A stretch of 64,000 bases of DNA from Nitrogeniibacter sp. Its GTDB lineage: Bacteria > Pseudomonadota > Gammaproteobacteria > Burkholderiales > Rhodocyclaceae. Made by a program: the position numbers and the translations under genes. A model generated the notes under the pieces. The model worked only from the letters and a program-made list of their open reading frames with translations. It searched no databases and was not told where the DNA came from. Positions 3,185-19,463 of this stretch are shown here, one piece after another; within the stretch, counting starts at the first letter, position 1, and every line of letters starts with the position of its first letter. Location: contig JBFIJC010000001.1 in the NCBI GenBank assembly GCA_041600915.1, positions 23,895 through 87,894 of the forward strand. The letters are read 5' to 3'.

Positions 3185-3393
3185 TGGCCGGATACAGGTC
3201 TCCGTTGGGCCGCCTGATGCCCGAATCCGTCGATGTCGAGCGCATCAAACGGGAGGGGTACTACGAAGACGGAATTCTCGTGATCGACATGCGGCGCGAC
3301 AACATGGACTGGACCGAAAGGGAAATTTTCAAGCAGTGGGCAGAGAAGCGATACCGAAAACCGAAGGCATTCACCAGCCGCAAGGAGCCGTGA
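3184..3393 (+). CDS. Hypothetical phage protein
   Basis: 69 aa, coupled (TGATG) to the upstream gene, charged composition. Confidence 0.5.
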   Translation: MAGYRSPLGRLMPESVDVERIKREGYYEDGILVIDMRRDNMDWTEREIFKQWAEKRYRKPKAFTSRKEP

Positions 3394-3959
3394 TGACGAC
3401 AGGAGCAATGACCATGACCGACGCGTCGGCCGAGCCGATGTTTAAAAGCACCCACGCGGCCCTGGTGTTCGCGTTCAACTTCTCGATGCAGCAGTACGAC
3501 CAGCCGGCCATGGTCAAGCTGATGGGCCCGCCGCTGGGATCTGGGAAAGGCCTTGTCGGGACGTCCGGCGCCGCACAGGCGGGAATGGTGCTGGCGGCTG
3601 TTGAGCGGCTTGACCCCATCCACCGTGCAGCGATCTATGCCAGATTCGCGCCGAAGTTCGAGGAGTGTCCGTGCTGCCACGGGGACAAACCGACACAAGA
3701 GTGGCAGGAGGCCGTCGAGCGCTTGGCGTCCTGGGCGGTGCCGGCCGGTATCAGCCACATGCGGGCTCGCCGGGCGCTGATCGCGAAGTTCTTCGGCGTG
3801 CGAGGGGTGGAGTTCAAGTCACTGGCGTCCGACTTCGGGCTGAATCGCAAGGCGCTGTCTGAACAGTACCAGACGATCGGTGCAAGCCTGAAGAAAGCCG
3901 AGGAGAAGGGGCAGACAGCGCTGGATGACGAGTTCAGGCAGCGCGGGTTGGTTGGATGA
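3393..3959 (+). CDS. Putative late-gene regulator (Q-antiterminator-like by position; function unproven)
   Basis: 188 aa from MTTGAMTMTD. Cys/His cluster ECPCCHG. Last gene of the nin-like block, followed by a ~500-nt low-coding region with a strong promoter-like site. Confidence 0.4.
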   Translation: MTTGAMTMTDASAEPMFKSTHAALVFAFNFSMQQYDQPAMVKLMGPPLGSGKGLVGTSGAAQAGMVLAAVERLDPIHRAAIYARFAPKFEECPCCHGDKPTQEWQEAVERLASWAVPAGISHMRARRALIAKFFGVRGVEFKSLASDFGLNRKALSEQYQTIGASLKKAEEKGQTALDDEFRQRGLVG

Positions 3960-4092
3960 ACGCCGAGCGAAGCCGCGCCGTCAGGCATCGGATTGCACGC
4001 TGGGTTAGGTGCTAACGATTGAACAACAAAGGGATTTGACATGAACAGCTCGCAAAACTTGAAAGACAACGCCGCAATGGCCAGGTTGCTGT

Positions 4093-6824: not shown

Positions 6825-8082
6825 GCCGCAGGCCAGGTTCCTCACGCTGCCGCACAAGTTCCGGGCGTTCGTTGCCGGGTTCGGAAGCGGCAAGACGTGG
6901 GTAGGATCTTCGGCGCTGTGCAGACACGCCTGGGAGTGGCCTCGCGTCAATGCCGGCTACTTCGCGCCGACGTACCCGCAGATCCGCGACATCTTCTATC
7001 CAACGATTGAGGAAGTCGCGCACGAGTGGGGGATGAAGGCAGACATCCACGAGACGAACAAGGAAGTCCGCCTGTTCGCCGGCAGCCAGTACAGATGCAC
7101 GATTCTGTGTCGATCGATGGAGAAGCCTGGCGACATCGTCGGATTCAAGATCGGGAAGGCCCTGGTCGATGAGCTCGACGTGATGAAGGCCGAGAAGGCC
7201 GCGACCGCCTGGCGAAAGATCATCGCGCGACTGCGACACACCGCCGACGGTCTGCTGAACGGGGTTGATGTGACGACGACCCCTGAGGGGTTCAAATTCG
7301 TCTATCAGCAGTTCGTGAAAGCGATCCGCGAGAACCCATCGCTCGCGTCGATGTACGGCCTGGTTCAGGCAAGCACGTACGACAACGAGGCGAATCTGCC
7401 GGACGGCTACATCAACAGCCTGCGCGCCAGCTATCCGCCGCAGCTCATCGGCGCGTATCTTCGAGGCGAATTCACGAACCTGGCCAGCGGTTCTGTCTAT
7501 CCGAACTTCGACAGAAGGTTGAGTCACACCGACGCAGTAGAGCAGCCGGCCGAGCCGCTGCACATCGGCATGGACTTCAACGTGCTGAACATGACGGCGA
7601 TCGTGAGCGTCATCCGGGATGGGCTTCCGATCTCTGTCGGCGAGCTGACTGGCGTTCGCGACACTCCGGCGATGGTGAAGCTGCTCACGGAGCGGTTCAA
7701 GGACCGCGGTCACCCGCTGGCGATCTACCCCGATGCCAGCGGCCAGAACACCAGCAGCAAGAACGCGAGCGAGTCGGACCTTTCGATTCTGCGTCAGGCT
7801 GGATTCACGATCAGGGTAGATACGCACAACCCGGCAGTTCGTGACAGGGTTCTGGCGGTAAATTCAATGCTGCTCAACGACAACGGAGAGCGTCGCTGGA
7901 AGATCAACACCGACAGGTGCCAGAAGCTCACTGAAGCGCTCGAGCAACAGGCGTACGGATCGAACAGCGAGCCGGACAAAACGACCGGACACGACCACCC
8001 GAACGACGCGGTCGGCTACTTCATCGCCAACCGGTACCCGATCGTGAAGCGCCTCGCTGTTGTGCAGCAGCTGCGCATGTGA
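6796..8082 (+). CDS. Terminase large subunit
   Basis: 428 aa. Walker A-like FVAGFGSGKTW, DELD Walker B-like, C-terminal nuclease-like region. Position is upstream of the portal gene. Confidence 0.9.
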   Translation: MTTINPSLNRPQARFLTLPHKFRAFVAGFGSGKTWVGSSALCRHAWEWPRVNAGYFAPTYPQIRDIFYPTIEEVAHEWGMKADIHETNKEVRLFAGSQYRCTILCRSMEKPGDIVGFKIGKALVDELDVMKAEKAATAWRKIIARLRHTADGLLNGVDVTTTPEGFKFVYQQFVKAIRENPSLASMYGLVQASTYDNEANLPDGYINSLRASYPPQLIGAYLRGEFTNLASGSVYPNFDRRLSHTDAVEQPAEPLHIGMDFNVLNMTAIVSVIRDGLPISVGELTGVRDTPAMVKLLTERFKDRGHPLAIYPDASGQNTSSKNASESDLSILRQAGFTIRVDTHNPAVRDRVLAVNSMLLNDNGERRWKINTDRCQKLTEALEQQAYGSNSEPDKTTGHDHPNDAVGYFIANRYPIVKRLAVVQQLRM

Positions 8083-8107: not shown

Positions 8108-9499
8108 ATGACCGCATCCGTCCTCACCGAATCTGCCGCTGTCGCGAGCATGTCGCGCCACTGGCCGATGCTGCGCGCGTTGCTCGGCGGGACGGCTTCC
8201 ATGCGGGATGCTGGCAAAGCGTTTCTTCCGCAGTGGCCGAACGAGGACGACGATAGCTACAAGGCACGACTGGCCGTCGCCACGCTCTACCCGGCATATG
8301 GCCGCACCGTCGAAGTGCTCGCCGGCAAGCCGTTCTCGAAGCCGCTCACGCTGGGCGAGAACGTACCGGCGCGAATCGCTGCATGGATGACCGACGCCGA
8401 CATGCTCGGTCGGAACCTGCACACCTTCGCGGCCGACGTGATGACCGATTGCATCGGGTACGGGCCGTCCGGCGTGCTGGTCGATTTCCCGCGCGCCGAT
8501 GGTGTTCGCACCGTGGCCGACGAGCGCGCCGCCGGTGCCCGCCCGTACCTCGTCCGCTACTCACCTGGCACTGTGCTCGGGTGGCGGACGGTTCGCGAGG
8601 GCGGGGCGACGAAGCTCACACAGCTCCGACTGCTCGAGATCGTCCATGAGGATGACGGCGATTTCGGTGAGAAGGAGATCGAGCAGGTTCGTGTGCTGAC
8701 GCCCGGGGCCTGGGAGGTCTGGCGCAAGTCCGAGTCTGGCGACAGCAGCGGAAGCTGGGTCAAGGTCGATGAGGGCACGACGACACTCTCGGCAATCCCG
8801 TTCGTGTTCTTCTACGGGAAGCAATCTGGGTTCGGAGTGTCCGATGCGCCGATCCTCGACCTGGCCTTCCAGAACGTCGAGCACTGGCAGAGCAACAGCG
8901 ATCAACAGACGATCCTGCATGTGGCGAGGGTGCCTATCCTTGCCGTGATCGGGGCAGAAGGAGAAACCTCGATCACCGTCGGCGCGAAGTCTGCAGTCAA
9001 GCTTCCGAGTGGCGCGGACATGCGATTCGTCGAGCACTCCGGCGCCGCGATCGAGGCCGGACGGCAGTCACTGAAGGATCTCGAGGACCGCATGCGCCAG
9101 GCCGGCGCAGAGATGCTGGTGATGAAGTCCGGCAGCATGACGGCCACACAGAACCAGAACGAGGCCGAGGCGAACAGGTCCGCGCTTCAGCGGATCGTTG
9201 AGAGTGTCGAAGACGGTCTGGATCAGTGCTTGCAGTTCGCGGCCGACTGGGTCGGCGAGGCCAACGGCGGGAACGTGTCGCTGTTCAAGGACTTCGGGGC
9301 TCTGTCTCTGGCCGAAGCGATGCAAGACCTGATGACCATGAAACTTAGCGACGAGACGCGATTCGAAGAAGCGCAGCGCCGGGGTCTGATCGCACCGGAC
9401 CGCAAGTGGGAAGACGAGCGCGATCGACTGAACGAGCAGGGCCCGGCGCTTGGTTCGATTGGCGCTTCCGGCGGCGAAGACGATGGCAACGGTCAATGA
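8108..9499 (+). CDS. Portal protein (DUF4055-like)
   Basis: FLPQWPNEDDDSYKARLAVATLYPAYGRTVEVLAGKPFSKP is a signature of DUF4055 portals. Size and position fit. Confidence 0.8.
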   Translation: MTASVLTESAAVASMSRHWPMLRALLGGTASMRDAGKAFLPQWPNEDDDSYKARLAVATLYPAYGRTVEVLAGKPFSKPLTLGENVPARIAAWMTDADMLGRNLHTFAADVMTDCIGYGPSGVLVDFPRADGVRTVADERAAGARPYLVRYSPGTVLGWRTVREGGATKLTQLRLLEIVHEDDGDFGEKEIEQVRVLTPGAWEVWRKSESGDSSGSWVKVDEGTTTLSAIPFVFFYGKQSGFGVSDAPILDLAFQNVEHWQSNSDQQTILHVARVPILAVIGAEGETSITVGAKSAVKLPSGADMRFVEHSGAAIEAGRQSLKDLEDRMRQAGAEMLVMKSGSMTATQNQNEAEANRSALQRIVESVEDGLDQCLQFAADWVGEANGGNVSLFKDFGALSLAEAMQDLMTMKLSDETRFEEAQRRGLIAPDRKWEDERDRLNEQGPALGSIGASGGEDDGNGQ

Positions 9500-10586
9500 G
9501 GAGCTGCTCGACGCGGCTGTCTCGCACCAGATAGACCAGACCAGGTACAGCACCGGCGCAGTCCGACGGATCATCGCGATCCTGAACCGGACCGATGCCG
9601 ACCTGTTCGCGCAGCTCGTGGCAGCGCTGGAACGGATGCCGGCCGGCGGATTCTCGGTGGATCGTCTGGACGCGCTGCTGCAGTCTGTGCGGGCGCTGAA
9701 CGAGCGGGCATACGCGGCTGTGCGCCAGGGCATCGAGGGCGAGCTGCGAGCGTATGCCGACTACGAGGCCGGCTACCAGCTGCAGCTGTTCCAGGCGACG
9801 CTGCCGGTGCAGGTGAGCGTCGCTGCGGTGTCCGTCGAGCAGGCCTACGCCGCTGCGCTGGCCAGGCCGTTTCAGGGCCGGCTGTTGCGCGAATGGGCCG
9901 CCGGCATCGAGGCTGATCGGATGGTCCGCATTCGGGACGCGCTGCGTGTCGGGTACGTGGAAGGGCAGACAATTGACCAGATGGTCCGACGCATCCGCGG
10001 TACCCTGGCACGCGGCTACGAAGACGGGATCATCGAGATCGACCGGCGGAATGCTGCTGCGGTTGTGAGAACGGCCACCCAGCACGTCGCTGGCACAGTG
10101 CGGGATCGGTTCATCGAATCCAACTCAGACCTGATCGCCGCAGAGACCTGGGTCAGCACGCTGGACGGACGGACGTCGCACCCGTGCCGGATCCGAGACG
10201 GGCTGCGCTACACAGCGGGCGATCATAAGCCGATCGGGCACAAGGTGCCGTGGGGCGCCGGTCCCGGCCGGCTGCACTGGAACTGCCGGTCTGGCAGCGT
10301 CCCGGTGCTCAAGAGCTGGCGAGAGCTCGGAATCGATGAGGATGAACTTCCGGCCAACACCCGTGCCAGCATGGACGGACAGGTGCCAGAGGACATGACC
10401 TACGCGCAGTGGCTGAAGAAGCAGAGCGCAGCGCGACAGAACGACGTCCTTGGGCCCACTCGCGGAAAGCTGTTCAGAGCCGGGAAGCTTGAGATGGACC
10501 GGTTCTACGACGACAAGGGCCGGTGGCTTTCGCTCGACGAGATGCGCGAGCGCGACGCGGCGGCATTCAAGCGCGCTGGCGTCTAG
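9483..10586 (+). CDS. Head morphogenesis protein (Mu F / SPP1 gp7 family)
   Basis: WVSTLDGRTSHPCRIRDG motif, follows the portal gene. Start taken at MATVNEELL. Confidence 0.8.
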   Translation: MATVNEELLDAAVSHQIDQTRYSTGAVRRIIAILNRTDADLFAQLVAALERMPAGGFSVDRLDALLQSVRALNERAYAAVRQGIEGELRAYADYEAGYQLQLFQATLPVQVSVAAVSVEQAYAAALARPFQGRLLREWAAGIEADRMVRIRDALRVGYVEGQTIDQMVRRIRGTLARGYEDGIIEIDRRNAAAVVRTATQHVAGTVRDRFIESNSDLIAAETWVSTLDGRTSHPCRIRDGLRYTAGDHKPIGHKVPWGAGPGRLHWNCRSGSVPVLKSWRELGIDEDELPANTRASMDGQVPEDMTYAQWLKKQSAARQNDVLGPTRGKLFRAGKLEMDRFYDDKGRWLSLDEMRERDAAAFKRAGV

Positions 10587-10880: not shown

Positions 10881-11129
10881 ATGGAGCAACCCGCATCCGA
10901 AACAGCCCTCGCAGTTGGTGCGAAAGTCACCACCGCGATGACTCAGGGTGGGGCCGGCGTTGCGATCATTGGCGGGCTGACGTTCAACGAGATGGCCATT
11001 GTCGTCGGCATCGTTGTCTCCGTGCTGAGCATGGCCGGCAACTGGGCTATCAACTGGTACTGGCAATCTCGGGAACACCGGCTGAAGGTTGAGCGGTTTG
11101 AATGGGAACGGAGGGCGCGAGATGATTAA
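10881..11129 (+). CDS. Holin (two predicted TM segments)
   Basis: 82 aa. GAGVAIIGGLTF and IVVGIVVSVLSMAGNWAINWYW hydrophobic segments, charged C-terminus. Overlaps the endolysin start. Confidence 0.7.
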   Translation: MEQPASETALAVGAKVTTAMTQGGAGVAIIGGLTFNEMAIVVGIVVSVLSMAGNWAINWYWQSREHRLKVERFEWERRARDD

Positions 11130-11607
11130 GCGTCGCATCATCGCCGCTGCGCTGTCCCTTTCGGCCGCAGGTTTGGTGTCTCTGGTCGGATACGAGGGTT
11201 ACACGGACCGGGCCGTCATTCCTATCCCTGGAGACGTTCCTACCATCGGGTTTGGCACGACGGAAGGTGTTCGGCTGGGCGACACGACGAACCCGCCGAA
11301 AGCCTTGGCGCGCGCACTGCGCGACGTGAGCAAATTCGAAGGTGCCATCCAGTCTTGCGTTACGACGCCGCTCTATCAGAGCGAGTACGACGCATACACC
11401 AGCCTGGCCTACAACATCGGCGGATCAGCGTTCTGTGGATCGACCCTTGTTCGAAAACTGAACGCTGGCGACTACGCCGGTGCGTGCGACCAGATCCTGC
11501 GTTGGCGCTACGCCGCCGGGCGTGACTGTTCAGACCCCGCAAGTAAGTGCATCGGCCTGTGGCGCCGTAGGCAGTCAGAGCACGCCATGTGCAGGGGCGA
11601 ACAATGA
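11122..11607 (+). CDS. Endolysin, GH24 lysozyme with N-terminal signal-anchor (SAR-like)
   Basis: IIAAALSLSAAGLVSLVGYEGY...DVPTIGFGTT (E-D-T catalytic spacing), YDAYTSLAYNIG. Confidence 0.9.
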   Translation: MIKRRIIAAALSLSAAGLVSLVGYEGYTDRAVIPIPGDVPTIGFGTTEGVRLGDTTNPPKALARALRDVSKFEGAIQSCVTTPLYQSEYDAYTSLAYNIGGSAFCGSTLVRKLNAGDYAGACDQILRWRYAAGRDCSDPASKCIGLWRRRQSEHAMCRGEQ

Positions 11608-11786
11608 GCAGCAACAGCAAGACAACGACCGCGATCACGGCGCTGGTGTTGATCCCGCTTGTCGCTCTGAGCGCATGGGCATACATCGACGGCCAGATCA
11701 CGTACGAGCAGTACGTCGATCAGTGGGTAGGACCTGCCGGTGTCGTGCTCGGGTTCTGGTTCCGCGGACAAATGGTGGAGGAGTGA
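11604..11786 (+). CDS. Small membrane protein in the lysis cassette (second holin/antiholin-like?)
   Basis: 60 aa with two hydrophobic segments (AITALVLIPLVALSAWAY; GPAGVVLGFWF). ATGA overlap with the endolysin stop. Confidence 0.5.
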   Translation: MSSNSKTTTAITALVLIPLVALSAWAYIDGQITYEQYVDQWVGPAGVVLGFWFRGQMVEE

Positions 11787-11787
11787 T

Positions 11788-12186
11788 GTGCCAACGAGAC
11801 TCTATGGTGTTCTGGCCGGTGTTCTGGCCGTCCTTGTGGCTCTCGCTGTGGCTGGCTGGGGCGGCTACAGCTACCGCGACGCGCAGTGCCGCGCTGACGA
11901 AGAGCACGCCCGCGCCGAAGTGGCGGACGCCCTTGCTCTCCTTGCACATCGGTACGCTGAAGCCGATGCGGCGGCCACAGACGCTCGCTCCAAGGCGCGA
12001 GCGCTGGCTGACCAGCGTTTGAGGGTGGCGAAGGATGACTCGGATCACCTTCCTGATCGCGCTTGCGGCTGGAGCGCTGATGAGCACCGGCTGCTCTCGA
12101 ACCACTACTGCGCTCGCTTCCCTTCCGCCGCCGGCTGCGTGCCTGACCCGGTGCGAGACCCCGCCGGCGCCGCCCGGGCCGAATGA
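11788..12186 (+). CDS. i-spanin (Rz-like)
   Basis: GTG start after GGTGGAGGAG. N-terminal TM LYGVLAGVLAVLVALAVAGWGG followed by an Ala/charged helical region. Confidence 0.7.
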   Translation: MPTRLYGVLAGVLAVLVALAVAGWGGYSYRDAQCRADEEHARAEVADALALLAHRYAEADAAATDARSKARALADQRLRVAKDDSDHLPDRACGWSADEHRLLSNHYCARFPSAAGCVPDPVRDPAGAARAE

Positions 12187-12301
12187 CGACAAGGCGCGCA
12201 GGCGTTGGGAGATCGAGGTCATCGATAGCCACGCGAACTGCGGCACCCTGCACGACGACTGCGCCGCCGAGGCGCTGCGCCGGATGAAGGCGCCGAAGTA
12301 G
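12035..12301 (+). CDS. o-spanin (Rz1-like lipoprotein), overlapping the i-spanin in another frame
   Basis: Signal plus lipobox-like ALMSTGC, Pro-rich mature part (LPPPAA, TPPAPPGP). Starts inside the i-spanin gene and extends beyond it. Confidence 0.7.
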   Translation: MTRITFLIALAAGALMSTGCSRTTTALASLPPPAACLTRCETPPAPPGPNDDKARRRWEIEVIDSHANCGTLHDDCAAEALRRMKAPK

Positions 12302-12321
12302 CACGACTGAACCGAATCAGC

Positions 12322-12358
12322 GAGGCCCGACGGGGAAACCCGGCCGGGCCTTTTGCTT
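12322..12358 (+). terminator. Probable rho-independent terminator
   Basis: Imperfect GGCCCG...CGGGCC hairpin followed by TTTTGCTTTT. Confidence 0.5.
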
Positions 12359-12431
12359 TTCTGCTGCCAGCGCGGATGCGAGGCGGTGATACCTGGCCGG
12401 ATGGCCTCAATTACCTGGAGTTGGATGACTC

Positions 12432-13181
12432 ATGAAACTCAAGCTCGATGAAAACGGCCACGTCGTATTGCAAGACGGGAAGCCGGTCTATGTCCACGAA
12501 GACGGAAAGGAAGTTGCATTTGATGCAGCCGGAACCGTGGCCACGATCAGCCGACTGAACGGCGAGGCCAAGGGACACCGGGAACGCGCGGAAGCGGCCG
12601 AGAAGTCGCTGAAGGCGTTCGATGGCATCACGGATCCGGCCGCAGCAGTCAAGGCGCTGGAGACCGTCGCCAATCTCGATGCAAAGAAGCTGGTGGATGC
12701 CGGCGAGATCGACAAGGTGAAGTCGGAAATCAGCAAGGCCTTCCAGGCCCAGCTGGACCAGGCGAACGGTTCTGCGAAGGCCCTTGAGCAGCAGCTATAT
12801 GCCGAGAAGATCGGTGGCAGTTTTGCCCGCTCCAAGGTCATCGCCGACAAGCTCGCCATCCCCGCCGACATGGTGCAGGCCCGCTTCGGCCAGGCCTTCA
12901 AGATCGAAGAGGGCAAGGTCGTCGCCTACGACGCCAACGGAAACAAGCTTTTCAGCCGTTCGCGCCCGGGCGAGCTCGCCGACTTCGACGAGGCTCTGGA
13001 ATCGCTCATCGAGCAGTACCCCCACAAAGACCACATCCTGAAGAGCTCCGGCGCCAGCGGCGGCGGGGCGGCAGGCGGTGGTAAGGGCGGGGGCGGAAAC
13101 AACAGCAAGGGGAACATTGGCGGAACGAAGGAAGAGCGCCTTGCGGCGATCAACGCCAGGTTCCCGGACCTCGCATCCTGA
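12432..13181 (+). CDS. Capsid scaffolding protein
   Basis: 249 aa, helical/charged, Gly-rich tail (GASGGGAAGGGKGGGGNN). Directly precedes the major capsid gene. Confidence 0.7.
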   Translation: MKLKLDENGHVVLQDGKPVYVHEDGKEVAFDAAGTVATISRLNGEAKGHRERAEAAEKSLKAFDGITDPAAAVKALETVANLDAKKLVDAGEIDKVKSEISKAFQAQLDQANGSAKALEQQLYAEKIGGSFARSKVIADKLAIPADMVQARFGQAFKIEEGKVVAYDANGNKLFSRSRPGELADFDEALESLIEQYPHKDHILKSSGASGGGAAGGGKGGGGNNSKGNIGGTKEERLAAINARFPDLAS

Positions 13182-13198
13182 TCTGAAAGGAGAAAGAC

Positions 13199-14161
13199 AT
13201 GGCCCTGGCCAACATGAAGGTGTTCAACGACAACCTGCGCGCCGTTACCATCGAAACGCTCGCGCAGATGGTCGAAAAGTTCAACGCCGCTTCTCGCGGC
13301 TCGATCCGTCTGAGCACGGACGGCTTCGGCGGCGACTTCCTGATGGAATCGTCCTTTGCCTCCCTGCACAGCGCCCAGCGTCGCGTTGATCGCTACGCCA
13401 CCAACGCCTCGGCCGGTTCGACTCCGCTGGCCCAGCTGCAGCACAACAGCGTCAAGGTGGCCGGCGGCTTCGGGCCGATCCTGTGGGAACCCGGTCAGCT
13501 TACCTGGGTGCAGCAGAACCCCGCTCTCGCCATCGAGGTGATCAGCCGCAACATGTCCGAGGCGATCATGCGCGACATGCTCAACACTGCGATTGCTGCC
13601 CTCGTGGCCGCGATCGAGGCGCAGGGCAGCGCTACGGTGGCTGACGGCGGTACCGGGCCGGTGACCTACGCCGACATCAACAACGCCCACGCGAAGTTCG
13701 GCGACCACTCCGGACTGATCGTTGCCAACGTGATGGACGGCGCGACCTATCACGGCATCATCGGCCAGAACCTGGCCAACGCAGCCCAGTTGTTCCAGGC
13801 GCAGGGCGTGACCGTGGTCGATATCCTCGGCCGCGCGATCGTCGTTACTGACGCTCCGTCGCTGCGCGAGACCGGCACCGGTGCGGACGCCAAGGTTCTT
13901 GGACTGGTGCCCGACGCAGCGGTTGTGCATGACGCGAGCGACCTGCTGACCAACATCGAGACCTCCAACGGCAAGGAGCGTATCGAGACCACCATGCAGG
14001 GCGATTACACCTTCGGCCTTGGCCTGAAGGGTTACGCCTGGGACACCGCGAACGGCGGCAAGTCGCCGACCGACGTGGAACTGGCGACCGGTTCCAACTG
14101 GGACAAGATCGCCACCAGCATCAAACACACCGCCGGCGTGCTGGCACTCGCCAACGTGTGA
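13199..14161 (+). CDS. Major capsid protein
   Basis: 320 aa. Position after the scaffold gene, composition typical of HK97-fold capsid proteins. GGAGAAAGAC RBS. Confidence 0.8.
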   Translation: MALANMKVFNDNLRAVTIETLAQMVEKFNAASRGSIRLSTDGFGGDFLMESSFASLHSAQRRVDRYATNASAGSTPLAQLQHNSVKVAGGFGPILWEPGQLTWVQQNPALAIEVISRNMSEAIMRDMLNTAIAALVAAIEAQGSATVADGGTGPVTYADINNAHAKFGDHSGLIVANVMDGATYHGIIGQNLANAAQLFQAQGVTVVDILGRAIVVTDAPSLRETGTGADAKVLGLVPDAAVVHDASDLLTNIETSNGKERIETTMQGDYTFGLGLKGYAWDTANGGKSPTDVELATGSNWDKIATSIKHTAGVLALANV

Positions 14162-14197
14162 TGAGCGCGGGGAGGCTTCGGCCTCCCCGTCTCTTTC

Positions 14198-15484
14198 ATG
14201 ACCGACAAACTGACAATCGCCGAGCGCGAGAAGTACCGTCGCACTTGGCAGGACGAAGGCTATCGCGTCAGATCACCGGGGCTTCGGCATCTCGACGCGG
14301 CACTCAAGTGGATGGCGCCGCCGCCTGGCGCCACGATCACGGATTGGGGCAGCGGCAGCGGACAAGCCACCGACGCAATGGTGGATCGAGGTTTCGACGT
14401 CCGCATGGTGGATATCGCGGCCAACGCCTACCGCGGCAAGAACGGCCCGGTCATCGAGTCGTGCCTATGGGAACTGCCATACGACATGGGCGCGACGGAA
14501 TACGGGTTCTGTGCTGACGTGCTGGAGCACATCCCGCCGGAGCGCGTTGATCTCGTTCTCAACGGCATCGCCAAGCGAACGCGGACGGCCTGCTACTTCC
14601 AGATCGCGCTGTTCAGACACGACACCTTTGCCGGCCCGCTCCACCTGAGCGTCTTCCCGGCCGAGTGGTGGCGCAGACGGATCCTGCAGCACTTCGGATC
14701 AGCCGAGTTTCGGGTGATCGGAAGCAAGCATGTCTTGGCGGTCGCGCGGACATCCGACGTCGCCACACTCACTGAAAGGAAGAAAGCAACCATGGAAAAA
14801 GACTTCCGTGCTCTGGCCCTTGCGCACAAGGGCAAGACCATCTGCGTCATGGGCGGCGCGCCGTCGCTCGCCGACGACCTGGCCAAGATCAAGGCCGACA
14901 TCTACATCAGCGCCAATGGCCACGGCGCCGATCTCGTGACGCCGCACTACCTGTTGGCGATGGACGAGACCAACAAGCGCACGAACGGCCCGATGGGCGA
15001 TGACTTGCGATCAGCGGTTCCTGGCGTGCCGATCATCAGCCCGCATGCCTACGCAGATCACCAGCTGACCGACTGGCCGCAGGCGCCGCGGTTCGTGCTC
15101 TCCGGCATGGTGGCTGTCTGGGCGGCTTTCATGATGGGCGCGAAATGCGTGGTTGTGGCCGGCATGGATGCCTACGGCGGCGAATCTGGCTACATCGACG
15201 AGGCGCGCAAGATGGCCCGCGACGTGCCGGTACCTGTGCGCACGCTGAGCGGCCCGCTCTCTGAGGTGTGGCCGGCATACGAACCCGCCGAGAAGTTCGG
15301 TCGCTACTCGACCCCGGCGCAGATCGAGGGATGGATCAACGCGTCCGCCGACGGAGAGATCACCGTCGAAGTACTCAAGCCGACTACGGTCCGCGGATTG
15401 CCGCGAAACAAGGGTGACGAACTGAAGGTCTCCCGACACGAAGTCCGCCGCCTCCTGAAGCACCGGATGCTGCGCGAGATCTGA
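14198..15484 (+). CDS. Fusion protein: class I SAM-dependent methyltransferase + MptE/Maf(DUF115)-like domain
   Basis: N-terminal ITDWGSGSGQA (motif I), VRMVDIA, FCADVLEHI. C-terminal KTICVMGGAPSLADDL...YISANG...LLAMDE...VVVAGMDAYG. Internal ATG 14792 is preceded by AGGAAG. Confidence 0.55.
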   Translation: MTDKLTIAEREKYRRTWQDEGYRVRSPGLRHLDAALKWMAPPPGATITDWGSGSGQATDAMVDRGFDVRMVDIAANAYRGKNGPVIESCLWELPYDMGATEYGFCADVLEHIPPERVDLVLNGIAKRTRTACYFQIALFRHDTFAGPLHLSVFPAEWWRRRILQHFGSAEFRVIGSKHVLAVARTSDVATLTERKKATMEKDFRALALAHKGKTICVMGGAPSLADDLAKIKADIYISANGHGADLVTPHYLLAMDETNKRTNGPMGDDLRSAVPGVPIISPHAYADHQLTDWPQAPRFVLSGMVAVWAAFMMGAKCVVVAGMDAYGGESGYIDEARKMARDVPVPVRTLSGPLSEVWPAYEPAEKFGRYSTPAQIEGWINASADGEITVEVLKPTTVRGLPRNKGDELKVSRHEVRRLLKHRMLREI

Positions 15485-15501
15485 CCCACAGGAGACTCAC
15501 G

Positions 15502-15723
15502 GTGAGCGAGAAGAAACTGTACGACGTCCTGATCACCTTCAAGGACGGCCGGATCGAGTACGTGAAGGGCGAGCGCTGCCACTTCGGTGACGAAGACGCG
15601 ACCCGCTTTCTTTCCTACGGATGGATTTCCGAAAGCGGCGGCGCGGCTCAGGTAGCCGGCGGCAAGAACATCGACTTGTCGATCAAGAACAGCAAGATCG
15701 GCATCACTTCTGAGAGGGTTTGA
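15502..15723 (+). CDS. Hypothetical protein (GTG start)
   Basis: 73 aa, GGAGAC RBS-like sequence upstream. Confidence 0.45.
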   Translation: MSEKKLYDVLITFKDGRIEYVKGERCHFGDEDATRFLSYGWISESGGAAQVAGGKNIDLSIKNSKIGITSERV

Positions 15724-15725
15724 GC

Positions 15726-16106
15726 ATGGCCAAGTCAGTACATAACGACGTCCTCGACGGGGCGCTGAACATCATCAAGAACAACTGCACGCGGCAGGTT
15801 GCGTGCAGCGCCGAGCCGACCACCTTCGCCGAGGCGAACGCGACCTACGCGCTGGCTGACGTGACGATGGCCGGGACCGACTTCACGATCGCCGACGGCG
15901 ACACCAGCGGCCGGAAGGTGACTGTTGCCGCGAAATCGACCGTCACCATCGACGCCAGCGGCACCGCAAATCACGTCGCGCTGCTGGACGTGGCGAACTC
16001 GAAGCTGCTTGAAGTCACTACCTGCACGCCTCTGGTCCTGACCGCTGGCGGTGGCAACACCGTGAATTTCCCAGCGTGGGATATCGAGATCGCGGACCCG
16101 ACCTGA
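15726..16106 (+). CDS. Hypothetical, probably virion-associated protein
   Basis: 126 aa from MAKSVHNDVLDGAL, ending PAWDIEIADPT. The sequence looks familiar to me from phage structural modules, with no assigned function. Confidence 0.55.
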   Translation: MAKSVHNDVLDGALNIIKNNCTRQVACSAEPTTFAEANATYALADVTMAGTDFTIADGDTSGRKVTVAAKSTVTIDASGTANHVALLDVANSKLLEVTTCTPLVLTAGGGNTVNFPAWDIEIADPT

Positions 16107-16108
16107 TC

Positions 16109-16546
16109 ATGAGCGTCGTTCTGGTTGCCCGCCGCAACACGCCGGGGCTTTTCGCCTGGCTGGTGCGCCGCTGGACAAAGTCGCGCTACGACCATTGCGA
16201 GCTGCTGGTGGGCGGGCGCTATCTGTCATCGGCGTTTCGGGACGGGGGCGTGCGGTCGGTGGATGAGGTCGACGGAGAGTGGGACGTTCTGCCGCTTCCA
16301 TGGGCCGACGAAGCGGCGGTAGCTGGCTACTTTGCAGCTACCGATGGCCAGCCCTACGACTGGCCGGCGCTGATCGGCTCCCAGATTTTCAATCGGCGCG
16401 ACGACGTTCCAAGTGCGGCGTTCTGCTCCGAGTGGTGCGCCGCCGCGCTGGGACTGCCAGTACCGCAGACATATTCCCCCGAGTCGCTATGGCGGCTGTG
16501 CCAATGGATCAACGAGGTGACGCATGACACCGCAGCAAATTATTGA
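16109..16546 (+). CDS. Putative permuted papain-like (NlpC/P60 superfamily) cysteine peptidase/amidase
   Basis: 145 aa. His-containing YDHCELLV precedes AAFCSEWCAAALG (His-before-Cys order). Weak motif-level call. Confidence 0.4.
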   Translation: MSVVLVARRNTPGLFAWLVRRWTKSRYDHCELLVGGRYLSSAFRDGGVRSVDEVDGEWDVLPLPWADEAAVAGYFAATDGQPYDWPALIGSQIFNRRDDVPSAAFCSEWCAAALGLPVPQTYSPESLWRLCQWINEVTHDTAANY

Positions 16547-17009
16547 TGCCATCGCCGCCGAGCCGCCGCTACAGGCGATGCGTGACGTGGGCGACTTGGC
16601 CGGCATTGCCGCCGCCCTTAGCGGCCGGCAGAGCGTGCTTGTGCCGCGCATGCTTTCAGAACGCGGCGTGCGCGATCTGCCGGTGCTTCCGCGGAGCCGA
16701 TACGCGCTGCTGACCGTGCTGCGCGATGCTGAAACGACGACGCCGGCATGGTTGGTTCCAACGCTGACCGCCGCTGGCGTGCCAGAGGAAGACCATGCCG
16801 CACTGGCCGACGACCTGGCCAGCGCATACCGGTGGATCACGCAAGAGGCGGGAATTGACGTGGCAAGCGCCGGTGCGCGGGCCATGCTCGACATCATCGG
16901 CGCCGCAGTGCCGGATGCCTCAGCCGCATGTGCGGCGGCAAAGGCGCTAGCCGAGCGGCCGGAAATTGTGACATGGCAGGAAGTTAAAACCGCAATGGAG
17001 GCAATCTAA
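16524..17009 (+). CDS. Hypothetical protein
   Basis: 161 aa, Ala-rich, overlaps upstream gene by 23 nt. Confidence 0.5.
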   Translation: MTPQQIIDAIAAEPPLQAMRDVGDLAGIAAALSGRQSVLVPRMLSERGVRDLPVLPRSRYALLTVLRDAETTTPAWLVPTLTAAGVPEEDHAALADDLASAYRWITQEAGIDVASAGARAMLDIIGAAVPDASAACAAAKALAERPEIVTWQEVKTAMEAI

Positions 17010-17389
17010 TGCTTGGCGCATATTATCGACTTGTCGCCGTAAACGAGCAGGGCGCTTCGGTCACGGTCACAGCTAAAATCAAGCGGCGCAAGTTTGGTAC
17101 TGATGGTTCGCTGACGTTGGAGGCGGCTCCGGTCACACTGCTTAATGCGGTGTCGATCCCGCTGTCGAGCACCACATCGTCAACGGGTGTGGACAACGGT
17201 ACGGATAAGTACCTATTCGCGGAAATTGAATTTACCGTCGTCGCTACATCGACCGGCTTGGTGTCACTCTACCTTTCCCGAAGTGTGGATGGCGGAACTA
17301 CCTATCCCGACGCAGGCAAGGGGCAGCTTATCGGCGCAATTAACTTCACGGCAAGCGGAACGCAGCGGCGCGTCTTCAACTTGGAGTGA
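17009..17389 (+). CDS. Hypothetical beta-rich protein
   Basis: 126 aa. The TAATG start overlaps the upstream stop. Confidence 0.5.
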   Translation: MLGAYYRLVAVNEQGASVTVTAKIKRRKFGTDGSLTLEAAPVTLLNAVSIPLSSTTSSTGVDNGTDKYLFAEIEFTVVATSTGLVSLYLSRSVDGGTTYPDAGKGQLIGAINFTASGTQRRVFNLE

Positions 17390-17394
17390 CCTGA

Positions 17395-19167
17395 ATGGGC
17401 TCCATTATTCTGCCGCGAGTTTGGGACCGGCAGCCTGGGGAAGCTGCGGAAATCGACTGGTCGCACCCGTTTCTCTCAGAAGCGCTGGCAGTTGTTGATC
17501 CGCTTACCGGGACAGAGCGTGTCACCGGGGTTCCGCTGACGCCGTTGTTCGGCTCGGAGAAGATCGCAGCCGGCGAGCATGGTCTTGGGTTCTACACAGG
17601 CAACAACGCCAAGTGGCAGTTCCAGGGGCGCATCCCGTCAGACCCCATATATGACCGAGAGACATCAATCTTTGTCTTATCGACGATCCTTGAAGCGCCA
17701 GTCAAAACTTATGGTGCGATCATGGGGCAGCAGGCCCCGTCGCAGTACGGCATTATTACAAAATCGCCGGCGGCCAATCTATACGCATCTTGGGCACCTG
17801 ATAGCCAGTTACTCACCACGCTTGCGGCAAATAAGACCTATGTTGCCTATGGGCGTGGCAATAAGTTCGCTGCGAATCAATCGCAATACGCTGCGGGGGA
17901 GTTCAGGAAGGGCGAATATGCGCTCGGCGCCCCATTCAGCAACGCGGGGGTTTTCGGCTATCCGTCCGACTGGTATCTAGGCGGTGACCATCGCTATGCG
18001 ACTGATCGATATCTGACTCAACTTGTTCACCTTGTCATCATCACGAACGGGTATCGCAGCGAAGCTGAATTCCAAGATATTGCTGAAAATCCTTGGCAGA
18101 TATTCAAAAGACGCCCCCTGCTTGTCCATTTTTCTTCAGGCGGGGGGGCCGCCAATCTGATGATTGGCAATTCGATGTTCGCAATGTCATCGGACGGGGT
18201 GACGCTTCAATCCGGCGTGTTTCTCAGTGCGGCTGACGTTTCCCATGGACTGAGTTCTGGTGTTCTGGCGATCAACGCCGGTGTCGAGTTGGCGGCCGGC
18301 TCTGCTCGGCACGGCATTTCTTCTGAATCTGCAGTTCTGTCCAGCATCTCGATCATCCAGGCGAGTGATGCCGCACACGGACACGCAGCAGACGCCGCGG
18401 ATCTGTCATCGCAGCACACGCTGCAATCTGCCGGCGCGCTGCATTCGGTGTCTTCGGACAACGCCGATCTGTTTAGTGGCACGTCCTTGGACTCAGCCGA
18501 TGCGACGCATTCTGTTTCCGCCGATGGCGTGGTGATCTCGTCGTCAAGCTTCCTGCAAGCAAGCGATGCGATTCACGCCCATTTAGCTGACGGCCTGGCG
18601 CTGTCGGCCGCTCTCGCTCTCGTGGTGTCAGGCGCCGCACACGGCGTCACATCGGACAATGCCACGATGGATTCCGGCACGGCGCTTTCGGTCAATGACG
18701 CGACCCACGCGCTGGCGTCCGAAGCCCCTGCGATATACGCGCAGCTCACCCTGCAGGCAGATGACGCTCAGCATGGCCTGTCGTCGGAGGCGTTCGCCTT
18801 GTCGGCCGCGCTGTCGCTGGTGCTCGACGATATCGCGCACTCGGTCGCCTCTGACGAGGTAGCGCTGAACTCCGGGGCTCTTCTGTCGCCGGATGGCGCA
18901 AATCACGCGTATGCGTCCGATGTTGCATCGCTGAGCACCGCGCTTGCGCTGGCGATCGATGGCGCGTTGCACGCCCATCTGGCCGACGGAGTGGGCCTCT
19001 ACGCGAGCCTGAATCTGGCGATCTCTGATGCTCTGCACGCGCATTCGGCCGCTGCGGCGAATCTTAACAATGGGGCCGCCGCACTATCGGCTGATCGCAC
19101 TCTGGCGGTTGCGGCAGAGATCCGGCGCCTGGTGGTGGCTATTGAATCTAGGAGATGGCTGCAATGA
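17395..19167 (+). CDS. LamG/concanavalin-like N-terminal domain protein with 22-aa tandem-repeat C-terminal region (possible decoration fibre)
   Basis: 590 aa. N-terminal ~240 aa ends in the EAEFQDIAENPWQIFK pattern seen at the ends of LamG-like jelly rolls. Residues 272-557 form 13 units of 22 aa. Confidence 0.65.
   Translation: MGSIILPRVWDRQPGEAAEIDWSHPFLSEALAVVDPLTGTERVTGVPLTPLFGSEKIAAGEHGLGFYTGNNAKWQFQGRIPSDPIYDRETSIFVLSTILEAPVKTYGAIMGQQAPSQYGIITKSPAANLYASWAPDSQLLTTLAANKTYVAYGRGNKFAANQSQYAAGEFRKGEYALGAPFSNAGVFGYPSDWYLGGDHRYATDRYLTQLVHLVIITNGYRSEAEFQDIAENPWQIFKRRPLLVHFSSGGGAANLMIGNSMFAMSSDGVTLQSGVFLSAADVSHGLSSGVLAINAGVELAAGSARHGISSESAVLSSISIIQASDAAHGHAADAADLSSQHTLQSAGALHSVSSDNADLFSGTSLDSADATHSVSADGVVISSSSFLQASDAIHAHLADGLALSAALALVVSGAAHGVTSDNATMDSGTALSVNDATHALASEAPAIYAQLTLQADDAQHGLSSEAFALSAALSLVLDDIAHSVASDEVALNSGALLSPDGANHAYASDVASLSTALALAIDGALHAHLADGVGLYASLNLAISDALHAHSAAAANLNNGAAALSADRTLAVAAEIRRLVVAIESRRWLQ
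18208..19065 (+). repeat. 13 tandem in-frame 66-nt (22-aa) repeats, consensus x5-L-x3-D-A-x-H-x3-[SA]-D-x3-L
   Basis: Hand-parsed units from QSGVFLSAADVSHGLSSGVLAI to YASLNLAISDALHAHSAAAANL. His falls at position 13 of every unit. Degenerate units flank the array. Confidence 0.8.
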
Positions 19168-19463
19168 GTTCGTTCGACCTGAGCAACCCCGACAAGCCGA
19201 AGATCATCAAGGATCCGGACGCGACGCTCGACTACATCATCGACTTGACTGGCTGGCTTGCCGATATCACAGACTCGCTGTCATCGCTCGTCGTGACCGG
19301 CGTCGGCGTGACGATCGATTCGAGCAACATCGATGGGGATATCTGCGTCGCATGGGTGTCAGGCGGAACAGTAGGGGAGACGGCGACTGTCACGTACAGA
19401 TTCACTACCCTCGGAGGACGCGGGGACGACCGGACGATCTACCTAAAAATCAAGGAGCGCTGA
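19155..19463 (+). CDS. Hypothetical phage protein
   Basis: 102 aa. KDPDATLDYIIDLTGWL ... GGTVGETATVTYRFTTLGGRGDDRTIYLKIKE, a pattern I recall next to phage neck genes. Confidence 0.5.
   Translation: MAAMSSFDLSNPDKPKIIKDPDATLDYIIDLTGWLADITDSLSSLVVTGVGVTIDSSNIDGDICVAWVSGGTVGETATVTYRFTTLGGRGDDRTIYLKIKER

Follow-up and report, generated by a model that had tools for sequence, protein, structure and literature searches.

Maf enzymes (PF01973) transfer CMP-Neu5Ac and CMP-Kdo to the Ser/Thr residues of flagellin, with CbMaf accepting both donors (PMC11339370). Ahead of their core lies a Rossmann domain whose methyltransferase-like motifs are weak, and recognition of the acceptor is delegated to an extra module, either a TPR domain or GlfM (PMC11339370; bioRxiv 10.1101/2023.12.03.569772). 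The A064R protein of PBCV-1 combines two glycosyltransferase domains with a sugar O-methyltransferase of the class I SAM type, which acts on the terminal sugar of the glycan carried by the major capsid protein, and CroV has predicted Kdo-pathway enzymes fused to methyltransferases (PMC9614988). Phage clusters that glycosylate DNA are characterised by GT-A/GT-B enzymes, a C5-cytosine methyltransferase, and either 5mYOX or ThyS (bioRxiv 10.1101/2023.12.21.572611). Mycobacteriophages use Che8/Corndog-type glycosyltransferases to glycosylate their own capsid and tail proteins (PMC11256854). These were the only tailed-phage precedents for virion glycosylation that we found cited. No report was found of a GT42/DUF115-type enzyme in the mycobacteriophage systems or in a phage head module, and no paper was found describing a two-gene phage module of a methyltransferase and a sialyltransferase-like protein. 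The primary paper on mycobacteriophage virion glycosylation is reportedly that of Freeman et al. in 2023; virion glycosylation is also known in archaeal viruses.

Within the window, meaning the whole 64,000-nucleotide stretch of DNA analysed, a single ORF at 14198..15484 (on the + strand, as are the capsid gene, the hairpin and the domains located below) begins with ATG and encodes a 428-aa protein, in which a methyltransferase is joined to a sialyltransferase/MptE-like domain. The original prediction was correct that it starts 37 nt past the capsid stop codon, because the preceding ORF, at 13199..14161, encodes the Gp13-like major capsid protein (Pfam PF20036, E=2e-117; phrog_247). The methyltransferase strings it quoted are present (ITDWGSGSGQA at aa 47-57, VRMVDIA at aa 68-74 and FCADVLEHI at aa 104-112), as are all those from the C-terminal half (KTICVMGGAPSL, IYISANG, LLAMDE and VVVAGMDAYG). 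A chance reading frame or an assembly artefact is excluded by the four 428-aa members of its 90%-identity cluster, from NCBI, Logan and ENA assemblies; by a 93% identical homologue (P0001) on an independent contig (L005), with the same gene order; by dozens of homologues of each half; and by the fold of the C-terminal half. On reading the sequence, no signal peptide or membrane segment was seen, and a direct phmmer search of the protein against the PDB gave nothing but weak methyltransferase matches.

The surrounding genes do not form the lambdoid or HK97-like head module that had been assumed, but instead include a DUF4055 portal, a Mu-F-like protein, a DUF6651 scaffold and the Gp13-like capsid. 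The fusion gene lies inside this late head operon, in the same orientation as its neighbours, and a search of 12300-16200 revealed no sigma-70-like promoter. The gap separating the capsid stop from the start of the ORF contains a GC-rich hairpin (14167..14190), with a 10 bp stem and a UUCG loop followed by CTCTTTC, which was scored as a terminator-like site. Its folding is stable (dG -29.4 kcal/mol, z = -4.7), with none of 200 shuffles being equally so, and hairpins of different sequence occupy the equivalent place in L008 and L006. The window hairpin resembles a terminator or attenuator, with attenuation itself being inferred. Downstream, a 73-aa ORF (15502-15723) has no Pfam match and no significant similarity to the tail of the fusion protein (E=0.55), and no tandem repeats were found at the DNA level in the 590-aa ORF.

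The N-terminal domain (aa 1-185; 14198..14752, with motif I at nt 14336-14368) is a class I SAM-dependent methyltransferase, as its motifs had suggested and as the family profile confirmed: it has motif I, an acidic residue after beta-2, motif IV, and profile similarity to PDB structures of this class. Its 83 homologues are mostly standalone proteins of ~184 aa and 55-72% identity, some of which carry the name class I SAM-dependent methyltransferase, and TDWGSGSG, VDIA and CADVLEHIPP are conserved over 31 of them. In the PDB, the family profile matched 45 SAM methyltransferases (best 3e23, E=2e-7), resembling generic small-molecule-type enzymes, and in PHROGs phrog_24759 'methyltransferase' was matched at E=9e-7. 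The window protein is below threshold for Pfam Methyltransf_11 (17.7 vs 21.2 bits) and Methyltransf_25; the related P0045 and P0046 exceed the Pfam methyltransferase threshold. Full-length AF2 with a mixed alignment modelled this half poorly (pLDDT <50), because most homologues in that alignment have a GT8-like domain rather than a methyltransferase.

The proposed fusion of this domain to an MptE-like one is real, but is the exception, with two separate genes being the normal state. In split loci the stop and start codons overlap as ATGA, an arrangement seen in about 23 split relatives, whereas fused loci have an insertion instead (DNA alignment of the window and L005 vs L006-L009). The linker at 14754..14791 comes from this ~36-nt insertion, and holds the SD-like AGGAAG (14777-14782) that had been noted upstream of the internal Met199 (MEKDF), both of which are present, with a 9 nt spacer before the ATG at 14792. 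Judged from the aligned DNA, the fusion is a rare derived form, in which the insertion removed the stop codon. The split module is also present in prophages of three cultured strains (Variovorax fucosicus J22R193, Pseudoxanthomonas sacheonensis DSM 19373 and Lysobacter dokdonensis DS-58), and a scan of genome contigs found only 4 loci, with the window's own genome not among them.

Instead, it is the C-terminal domain that is conserved. Its partners vary between loci: a methyltransferase, a GT8-like domain, a GT2, a radical SAM protein, or a PseF/KdsB-like CMP-sugar synthetase. The GT8-like domain, fused to it in relatives, has DxD, GDQG and HGxPRPW motifs, although only motif alignment supports its assignment (glycogenin E~0.25, Pfam GT8 E=0.006). 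In L004, a PseF/KdsB-like cytidylyltransferase gene (PseF E=5e-24, PF02348 E=2e-18) overlaps the C-domain gene, and in L001 and L003 the C-domain is accompanied by genes for a GT2, above the Pfam threshold, and a radical SAM protein. The C-domain gene is alone behind the capsid gene in five loci, and hence the domain can act without a partner. The methyltransferase and a DUF115-type domain also recur together, as the same methyltransferase family is joined in P0045 and P0046 to a genuine PF01973 domain (63 and 59 bits; gathering score 34.6), and in P0044 to another DUF115-like subclade. The conserved core is the C-domain rather than the fusion, and while the rest of the cassette varies, this domain stays constant. 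The suggested check of whether homologues keep the capsid-adjacent position gave a positive answer: in every one of the ~50 loci that include upstream DNA, a Gp13-like capsid gene precedes the C-domain gene by 0-4 genes. Other capsid families are involved too, with the C-domain gene located behind a capsid gene of HK97 type in L065 and behind a protease-capsid fusion in L126, and the P0044 methyltransferase/DUF115 pairing follows a lambda-E-type capsid gene (L012). A distant short clade of the C-domain family lies between terminase and portal, and not behind a capsid gene.

The C-domain catalytic core (aa 199-365; 14792..15292) was assigned to a GT42/MptE-like Rossmann fold by AF2, Foldseek and profile alignment. 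A model of aa 194-428 had a mean pLDDT of 91 and a pTM of 0.85, and is predicted to adopt the Rossmann-like alpha/beta fold common to MptE and the Maf/Cst-II core. Foldseek found only Cst-II (1ro8, 2x62), MptE (8sd5) and SteA (9hmy, 9hmz_D) in the PDB at a probability of 1.0, with modest TM-scores of 0.38-0.46. The top Pfam match was PF01973, below the gathering score (18.5 bits for the whole protein, 19.7-20.4 for the C-terminal half), and this was also the commonest Pfam match across the C-domain family (32/106 members at E<=1e-3, best 1e-8). When the profile of these 106 sequences was compared with the PDB, the nine best matches were all GT42 sialyltransferases, as were all the significant ones, with E 7e-5 to 2.5e-4 against Cst-II, Cst-I and 9c08 over ~45 residues only. 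The absence of any MptE- or glycosyltransferase-like profile or fold match in this half, which would have refuted the original prediction, was therefore not observed. A narrow 9-sequence profile retrieved no sialyltransferase and nothing relevant from the PDB; Pfam CST-I matched one of the 106 family members, and not the window protein, which had no match to Pfam PF06002; NCBIfam had no model matching the C-domain; and PHROGs had no family for the C-terminal half. Pfam membership by way of the C-domains of P0045 and P0046 was considered and dropped, as hhalign of the 9-sequence profile against P0045 gave only 5% probability. Homology of the window C-domain to above-threshold PF01973 domains is therefore not demonstrated, and hence its link to PF01973 rests on the fold and the sub-threshold matches.

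The profile alignment covers Cst-II residues 121-170, with S132/G133, D154, Y156 and Y162 aligning with S302/G303, D324, Y326 and Y332. The GT42 CMP-sugar binding motifs (GxGPSL loop, S-G and D-x-Y-x5-Y) are present as GGxPSL (GGAPSL, aa 219-224; nt 14852-14869), SG, and D324-x-Y326-x5-Y332 (nt 15167-15193), the last with identical spacing, and both tyrosines are near-invariant even in the distant clade. Tyrosines 156 and 162 are said to be the phosphate-binding tyrosines of Cst-II, in work attributed to Chiu et al. in 2004. Other core motifs are S238-x-N240-x-H242, D256 and S302-G303, and G220, S238, N240, H242, D256, G303 and G322 are near-invariant in the 106-sequence family, despite a mean column identity of 16%. 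The carboxylate-binding R129 of Cst-II aligns with F299, with a conserved R298 one residue earlier, although in the broad 106-sequence profile an Arg column does align with R129. In the profile alignment, no His was found in the C-domain region corresponding to the Cst-II catalytic base, His188; the conserved H242 and H422 can be regarded as no more than candidates for this role.

The lack of an identified His188 equivalent is one reason to consider that the C-domain is not a glycosyltransferase, but an MptE/SteA-type nucleotide-dependent enzyme, such as a (pyro)phosphokinase or other small-molecule transferase, which would work with the methyltransferase either to produce or alter a small molecule or to phosphorylate a head protein. 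The M. jannaschii HPPK (MptE), a pyrophosphokinase, fits the domain about as well as Cst-II (TM 0.40-0.43), and with a lower rmsd; both SteA structures also matched at a probability of 1.0; and the matched Pfam family bears the MptE name. However, MptE was not among the significant PDB matches of the 106-sequence profile, which were exclusively GT42, and one family member matches Pfam CST-I. Furthermore, both phosphate-binding tyrosines are kept with the same spacing, and the partner genes are glycosylation enzymes (GT8-like, GT2 and PseF/KdsB-like cytidylyltransferase). We regard this explanation as unlikely.

The protein ends in a beta-hairpin/helix mini-domain (aa 375-428; 15320..15481), which finishes with a conserved LLKHRMxxE(I/V) and is DUF7210-like. 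The Pfam DUF7210 match is below threshold (E=0.004-0.09), but Foldseek against BFVD matched small DUF7210 phage proteins over 40-49 alignment columns, with an rmsd of 0.8-2.4 A. In Thermus phage P23-45, the gene for gp90, a bona fide DUF7210 protein, stands immediately behind that phage's own capsid gene. We propose, by inference, that this tail is a head-targeting module.

Combining these observations, we interpret the ORF as a two-enzyme phage module in fused form, one that would modify the virion head. The C-domain would act in the cytoplasm as a CMP-ulosonic-acid transferase, glycosylating a head protein, and the methyltransferase would tailor the sugar; no virion modification has been demonstrated, glycosylation or methylation of the capsid remains an inference from gene position and association only, and we hold this interpretation with only even confidence. 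The gene would be transcribed late, downstream of the hairpin, and is inferred to be expressed probably below the level of the capsid protein, as a soluble cytoplasmic enzyme. Its minimal GT42/DUF115-type fold (aa 199-428) would bind a CMP-activated ulosonic acid, the inferred candidates being host CMP-Kdo, or a nonulosonic acid of the pseudaminic/legionaminic type. There is no sugar-activation gene in the window, or in minimal loci with a methyltransferase and C-domain, and therefore the donor is assumed to be host-derived; the only, indirect, support for CMP-ulosonic-acid transfer is the adjacent cytidylyltransferase in L004. The sugar would be transferred to exposed Ser/Thr residues of a head protein, the likeliest acceptor being inferred to be the capsid protein encoded upstream, with the DUF7210-like tail targeting the enzyme much as the TPR domain or GlfM partner binds the acceptor of Maf enzymes. 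In this inferred order of steps, the methyltransferase would act next, methylating the sugar just transferred or, as a less likely target, a nearby lysine, while in relatives the GT8-like domain in its slot would add a second sugar instead. Because the SD and the ATG at 14792 have been retained, the C-domain could also be made as a product of its own.

The same enzymatic activity could alternatively be directed at the host, were the gene a moron, or lysogenic-conversion cargo, that modifies LPS/LOS, capsule or flagellin from a merely permissive post-capsid site. The element is a prophage in a Denitromonas-like host, and the closest characterised enzymes target LOS (Cst-I/II) or flagellin (Maf). 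The slot between capsid and adaptor genes is variable in cultured relatives, and the module is accessory, occurring in only 1/457 phage records with a Gp13-like capsid. Yet multiple features oppose this explanation. Firstly, no sigma-70-like promoter was detected in 12300-16200, and the gene is co-oriented within the late head operon, 37 nt past the capsid gene. Secondly, methyltransferase/DUF115 pairings stand beside four different capsid gene types. Thirdly, the protein has a phage-specific DUF7210-like tail. Fourthly, a signal peptide or membrane segment was not seen on reading the sequence. We therefore judge a host target to be distinctly unlikely.

The position between capsid and head-tail adaptor genes, and the resemblance of the tail to small proteins encoded behind capsid genes, would also suit a decoration, cement or completion protein that retained an enzyme-like fold without catalysis. 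This is improbable, given that residues of the nucleotide-binding and active-site type are near-invariant across such a divergent family, that the post-capsid hairpin points to sub-stoichiometric expression, and that the domain is absent from most phages with this capsid type. Nor are homologues the ordinary head proteins that would have refuted the original prediction, as clearly enzymatic partners are fused to or encoded beside the domain, including methyltransferase, GT8-like, GT2, radical-SAM and CMP-sugar-synthetase genes. Least credible, and very improbable, is that the module hypermodifies phage DNA by base glycosylation or methylation during or before packaging: DNA-glycosylating phages do have methyltransferase and glycosyltransferase clusters, and a short family clade does lie between terminase and portal, but the enzymes that define such systems were in none of the cassettes examined, the methyltransferase profile matches generic small-molecule-type enzymes, and to our knowledge a nonulosonate/Kdo-type cytidylyltransferase has no known role in DNA modification.

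Extending the interpretation of the module as a head-glycosylation system, numerous prophages and uncultured phages from Gram-negative hosts may O-glycosylate their capsids, adding an acidic sugar that is sialic-acid-like or of the Kdo type and is frequently methylated or extended, through a minimal GT42/Maf-like transferase recruited to the head by a DUF7210-like tail; this generalisation is tentative, and we place its likelihood somewhat short of even. If true, tailed phages would have a first 'sialylation-like' system of virion modification, and its transferases would constitute a class of protein O-ulosonic-acid transferases that is both new and compact and draws on the host pool of CMP-Kdo or CMP-nonulosonate, in which an enzyme of ~230 aa puts acidic sugars on the capsid lattice. 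Such a portable cassette, joined to at least four capsid lineages, would bear on virion surface charge, stability and recognition, and thereby on phage ecology and phage therapy. It would also provide a minimal model for acceptor choice by Maf-type enzymes, a glyco-engineering tool in the form of a small protein O-sialyl/Kdo transferase with its own targeting tag, and a function with which to annotate hundreds of 'hypothetical' genes behind capsid genes.

Each of the known systems resembles this module only in part. MptE (6-hydroxymethylpterin diphosphokinase of M. jannaschii; 8SD5) shares its Pfam superfamily and its fold, yet is an archaeal folate-pathway kinase without a significant profile match, and the window context has no hints of pterin metabolism. 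The GT42 enzymes Cst-I and Cst-II of Campylobacter jejuni are the best fold match, the sole significant PDB profile matches, and share the GxGPSL loop, the S-G and G-x-D-x-Y-x5-Y. However, their acceptor is LOS, whereas it would be a protein for the window enzyme, which has no lid or membrane-association region, no His188 equivalent that could be found, and an R129 equivalent offset by one residue. Maf (5MU5) likewise has a PF01973-superfamily Rossmann core with a GxGPSL-type loop, and is a cytoplasmic enzyme for a self-assembling structural protein, as the window protein would be. Nevertheless the window protein is not a Maf, as the three-domain architecture and flagellar context are both lacking: Maf proteins have ~600-670 aa rather than 428, a degenerate N-domain where the window protein has an intact SAM methyltransferase, and a helical C-domain where it has a ~55-aa DUF7210-like tail. 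The window protein is in a phage head module without flagellar or nonulosonic-acid biosynthesis genes, its PF01973 match is sub-threshold, and its match to 5MU5 is not significant (E=0.76). The mycobacteriophages also encode enzymes that glycosylate their own virions, but infect Actinobacteria, and use GT-A/GT-B enzymes with NDP-hexose donors. Although it belongs to a eukaryotic giant virus, acts on N-linked glycans with GT-A-type and novel glycosyltransferase folds and a UDP-rhamnose donor, and has no sequence relationship to the window protein, it is A064R of PBCV-1 (with A061L) that represents the functionally closest analogue of a methyltransferase and glycosyltransferase fusion acting on a capsid.

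A variable, glycosylation-type cassette is organised around a small family of GT42/MptE-like proteins, and is recurrently placed behind phage capsid genes. In the window it comprises a single fused ORF of 428 aa (14198..15484, + strand), beginning 37 nt past the stop of the major capsid protein gene (13199..14161, + strand; Pfam Gp13-like PF20036, E=2e-117; phrog_247), upstream of which are genes for a DUF6651/phrog_206 scaffold, a Mu-F-like protein, a DUF4055 portal and the large terminase. The original description of a 428-aa ORF immediately after the capsid gene was exact: every motif string it listed is present, as is the internal ribosome binding site and start codon, in the form AGGAAG-N9-ATG at Met199 (nt 14792). 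The ORF is not an artefact, as its 90% cluster contains four 428-aa members from different assemblies, and locus L005, on a separate contig, carries a 93%-identical copy with its neighbouring genes in matching order. The ribosomal protein S1 cluster points to a Denitromonas-like host.

The methyltransferase matches of the N-terminal half were all sub-threshold in Pfam (Methyltransf_11, 17.7 bits against a threshold of 21.2), with a PHROGs match to phrog_24759 (‘methyltransferase’, E=9e-7). Searching with residues 1-198 recovered 83 homologues, nearly all standalone proteins of ~184 aa with 55-72% identity, some of which, from Variovorax and Pseudoxanthomonas, are named class I SAM-dependent methyltransferases by their source. 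Their alignment retains motif I (D49, G51, G53, G55), D72 and D107/E110/H111, alongside the family-specific K12-Y13, Q135 and H149, and the family profile matched 45 solved SAM methyltransferases in the PDB (best E=2e-7), bearing out the class I motifs originally proposed. Together, these homologues, motifs and matches identify this half, at the level of sequence, as a class I SAM methyltransferase; all 45 structures are generic small-molecule-type enzymes, and sequence alone does not reveal the substrate.

The C-terminal domain (residues 199-428) had been proposed to be MptE/DUF115-like, and this was supported by both profile and structural comparisons. Its top Pfam match was PF01973 (MptE-like), below threshold (18.5-20.4 bits against 34.6) and mainly covering the GGAPSL region. 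An AlphaFold2 model of residues 194-428, built with 46 homologues, reached mean pLDDT 91 and pTM 0.85, and a Foldseek search of the PDB matched it with probability 1.0 to the GT42 sialyltransferase Cst-II (1ro8, 2x62; TM 0.42-0.46), the M. jannaschii HPPK MptE (8sd5; TM 0.39-0.43) and SteA proteins (9hmy, 9hmz_D), and to nothing else at that probability. The family is small: when 1.84 billion representatives were searched exhaustively with HMMER, 366 clusters matched at E<=1e-3 and 186 at E<=1e-10, most members being standalone proteins of 220-260 aa. Within a 106-sequence family alignment, 32 members matched PF01973 and one matched Pfam CST-I, and the nine best matches of the resulting profile to PDB sequences were all GT42 sialyltransferases (Cst-II, E=7e-5; Cst-I; 9c08), with nothing significant outside this group. 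Residues S302-G303, D324, Y326 and Y332 align to Cst-II S132-G133, D154, Y156 and Y162, with equal D-x-Y-x5-Y spacing, and the equivalents of both tyrosines are near-invariant even in a distant clade of the family. A narrower profile found no sialyltransferase in the PDB, hhalign comparison with a bona fide PF01973 protein (P0045) was poor, Cst-II R129 has its counterpart displaced by one residue, and no equivalent of Cst-II His188 was found. The domain has the GT42/MptE fold with CMP-sugar-type motifs kept, and its assignment at superfamily level is held with high confidence; it is a distinct subfamily within GT42/DUF115, with its own architectures and capsid-linked context, the chemistry of which is predicted rather than demonstrated. 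The structural match to MptE leaves room for an MptE-like kinase, or another nucleotide-dependent enzyme, yet with sialyltransferases the only significant PDB matches of the family profile this is unlikely, and glycosyl transfer remains the inference moderately favoured.

The last ~55 residues (window 15320-15481) form a beta-hairpin/helix mini-domain, which resembles small DUF7210 phage proteins in BFVD (rmsd 0.8-2.4 Å over 40-49 columns) and weakly matches Pfam DUF7210. In Thermus phage P23-45 the gene immediately behind that of the capsid protein (9743-9967 of locus L063) encodes a bona fide DUF7210 protein, the standalone 74-aa gp90. DUF7210 may generally be a head-associated phage module; no publication on it was found. 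In some GT8-like/C-domain fusions (P0038, P0027), the conserved LLKHRMVEEV end is followed by a further domain of the HeH/LEM (SAP-like) type (PF12949, E~7e-9; alignment A1 columns ~745-811).

Synteny was assessed using gene calls and an HMM-based script across 63 sequences (62 fetched loci and the window). All ~50 loci for which upstream DNA was available have a Gp13-like capsid gene 0-4 genes ahead of the C-domain gene, which answers the question originally raised of whether homologues keep this position. The adaptor gene, where detected, is just downstream, with at most 1-2 small ORFs between except in the window and L005. The partners vary: the methyltransferase precedes the C-domain as a separate gene at ~23 loci, including prophages of Variovorax fucosicus J22R193, Pseudoxanthomonas sacheonensis DSM 19373 and Lysobacter dokdonensis DS-58, and is fused to it at two (the window and L005); a GT8-like domain is fused at 13 and encoded separately upstream at six; the C-domain stands alone after the capsid gene at five; and at one (L004) its gene overlaps that of a PseF/KdsB-like cytidylyltransferase (NCBIfam PseF, E=5e-24; PF02348, E=2e-18). 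Two larger cassettes (L001, L003) add radical SAM and GT2 genes, the latter above the Pfam threshold. At L016, the gene for a 295-aa protein weakly similar to ATP-grasp proteins of the RimK/LysX type (3145-4032) lies between the capsid gene and a GT8-like/C-domain fusion, hinting at amino-acid ligation onto glycan or protein.

Common descent with a single capsid lineage does not by itself account for the association, as the C-domain and methyltransferase also follow an HK97-type capsid gene (PF05065; L065) and a protease-capsid fusion (L126/L129). Furthermore, P0044 (L012 5059-6222) has the methyltransferase family in the opposite fusion order, after a different DUF115-like subclade, with a lambda-E-type capsid gene upstream and gpD-like decoration and ClpP-type protease genes nearby, while in P0046 (L014 1538-2965) it is fused to an above-threshold PF01973 domain, adjoining an SU10-type portal. 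Hence the methyltransferase/DUF115-type pairing recurs, and predates any one phage lineage. The Gp13-like capsid type is present in 457 of 50,697 deposited phage genomes, of which a single one, from an uncultured siphovirus, carries the module; in cultured relatives this slot is occupied by small ORFs of unknown function. A distant short clade (~185 aa, the catalytic core without the DUF7210-like tail) is found between large terminase and HK97-type portal genes, or just after the portal, in dozens of IMG/VR viral contigs (L067-L144; e.g. L067 5001-5393, L089, L079), sometimes tandemly duplicated (L128, L132), and may have a different target.

The fusion itself is derived. Most full-length homologues match it only in the C-terminal half, their alternative N-terminal domain carrying DLD, GDQG and HGxPRPW motifs; its best PDB profile matches were all glycogenin (GT8), none significant, and it matched Pfam GT8 at E=0.006. 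The commonest arrangement is of separate genes with an ATGA stop/start overlap, at which point the window and L005 have a ~36-nt insertion that removed the stop codon, supplying a linker and AGGAAG ahead of the retained ATG. Hence a separately initiated C-domain product is plausible from the sequence alone.

The 36-nt gap past the capsid stop contains a GC hairpin whose 10-bp stem is closed by a UUCG loop (14167-14190; dG -29.4 kcal/mol, z = -4.7), then CTCTTTC and the ATG. Hairpins of other sequence occupy the equivalent place at two split loci (L008 ~6970-6995, L006 ~8955-8976), and this constancy of position across lineages suggests that an attenuator or terminator separating capsid and enzyme genes has been conserved. 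No sigma-70-like promoter was found in 12300-16200. The arrangement is compatible with a gene of the late operon that is expressed less strongly than the capsid gene, as would suit an enzyme.

A lysis cassette (10881-12301) sits inside the head module, which is an unusual location, between the Mu-F-like gene (9450-10586) and the scaffold gene (12432-13181). It consists of a holin-like ORF (10881-11129), a phage lysozyme whose N-terminus is hydrophobic (11089-11607; PF00959, E=4e-32), and two ORFs that by inspection of their sequences are probably spanin-like (11589-11786, and 12035-12301 with a lipoprotein-like start). Downstream of the enzyme gene, five small ORFs (15502-17389; 73, 128, 156, 161 and 126 aa) precede a fibre-like ORF. 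No family could be convincingly assigned to any of the five; that of 156 aa (16076-16546) lacks a Pfam match, and matches phrog_1128 (E=3e-36), oddly annotated ‘enoyl-CoA hydratase-like’. As the adaptor directly follows the C-domain gene in most relatives, the five ORFs as a block are an insertion that only the lineage of the window and L005 has. The C-terminal two-thirds of the 590-aa fibre-like ORF (17395-19167) consists of ~15 degenerate repeats of ~19-20 aa, with recurring A-x-H...S-D...L motifs, and has neither a Pfam match nor a DNA-level tandem repeat. With the following Gp77-like ‘fiber-tail adaptor’ (19155-19463; PF23148, E=6e-20), it may make up a fibre of the neck or head; L005 is the only examined relative that has this block (17395-19463) in common with the window.

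The reaction proposed for the C-domain is the attachment of a CMP-activated ulosonic acid to Ser/Thr in one of the head proteins, of which the capsid protein is the likeliest acceptor; the donor would be host CMP-Kdo, or a Pse/Leg-type sugar where host or phage supplies one. The DUF7210-like tail would target the enzyme to the head, and the methyltransferase would methylate the transferred sugar, with the GT8-like domain a putative alternative elaboration in relatives. A head protein is marginally the preferred target, and the inferred chain as a whole is evenly balanced between right and wrong. The module could instead be a moron modifying host surface structures, consistent with its rarity among deposited phages, yet its place within the late head operon and the recurrence of such pairings beside different capsid gene types count against this, and it is rather improbable. 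A catalytically dead structural protein would suit the position between capsid and adaptor genes and the DUF7210-like tail, and is more doubtful still given the near-invariant active-site-type residues of the family. DNA hypermodification, for which the terminase-adjacent short clade and known phage clusters that glycosylate DNA offer an opening, is the least likely reading, as the enzymes that define those clusters were absent from the cassettes examined.

The enzyme superfamilies involved (GT42/DUF115, SAM methyltransferase) are already known, as is virion glycosylation, in mycobacteriophages (cited in PMC11256854) and giant viruses (PMC9614988). Literature searches turned up no account of a phage head module that encodes DUF115, MptE-like, nonulosonic-acid or DUF7210 enzymes, and PHROGs v4 has no family for the C-terminal half. 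Nonulosonic-acid-bearing flagellins are also lysine-methylated, hence protein methylation stays open as the role of the methyltransferase. For ulosonic-acid transfer to a head protein, the PF01973-core precedent is Maf, which O-glycosylates the structural protein flagellin using CMP-Neu5Ac or CMP-Kdo (PMC11339370), and needs separate acceptor-binding modules (PMC11339370; bioRxiv 10.1101/2023.12.03.569772). For the fusion of glycosyltransferase and methyltransferase, CroV has predicted Kdo-pathway enzymes fused to methyltransferases, and the precedent is PBCV-1 A064R, in which glycosyltransferase domains are coupled with a sugar O-methyltransferase whose substrate is the capsid glycan (PMC9614988).
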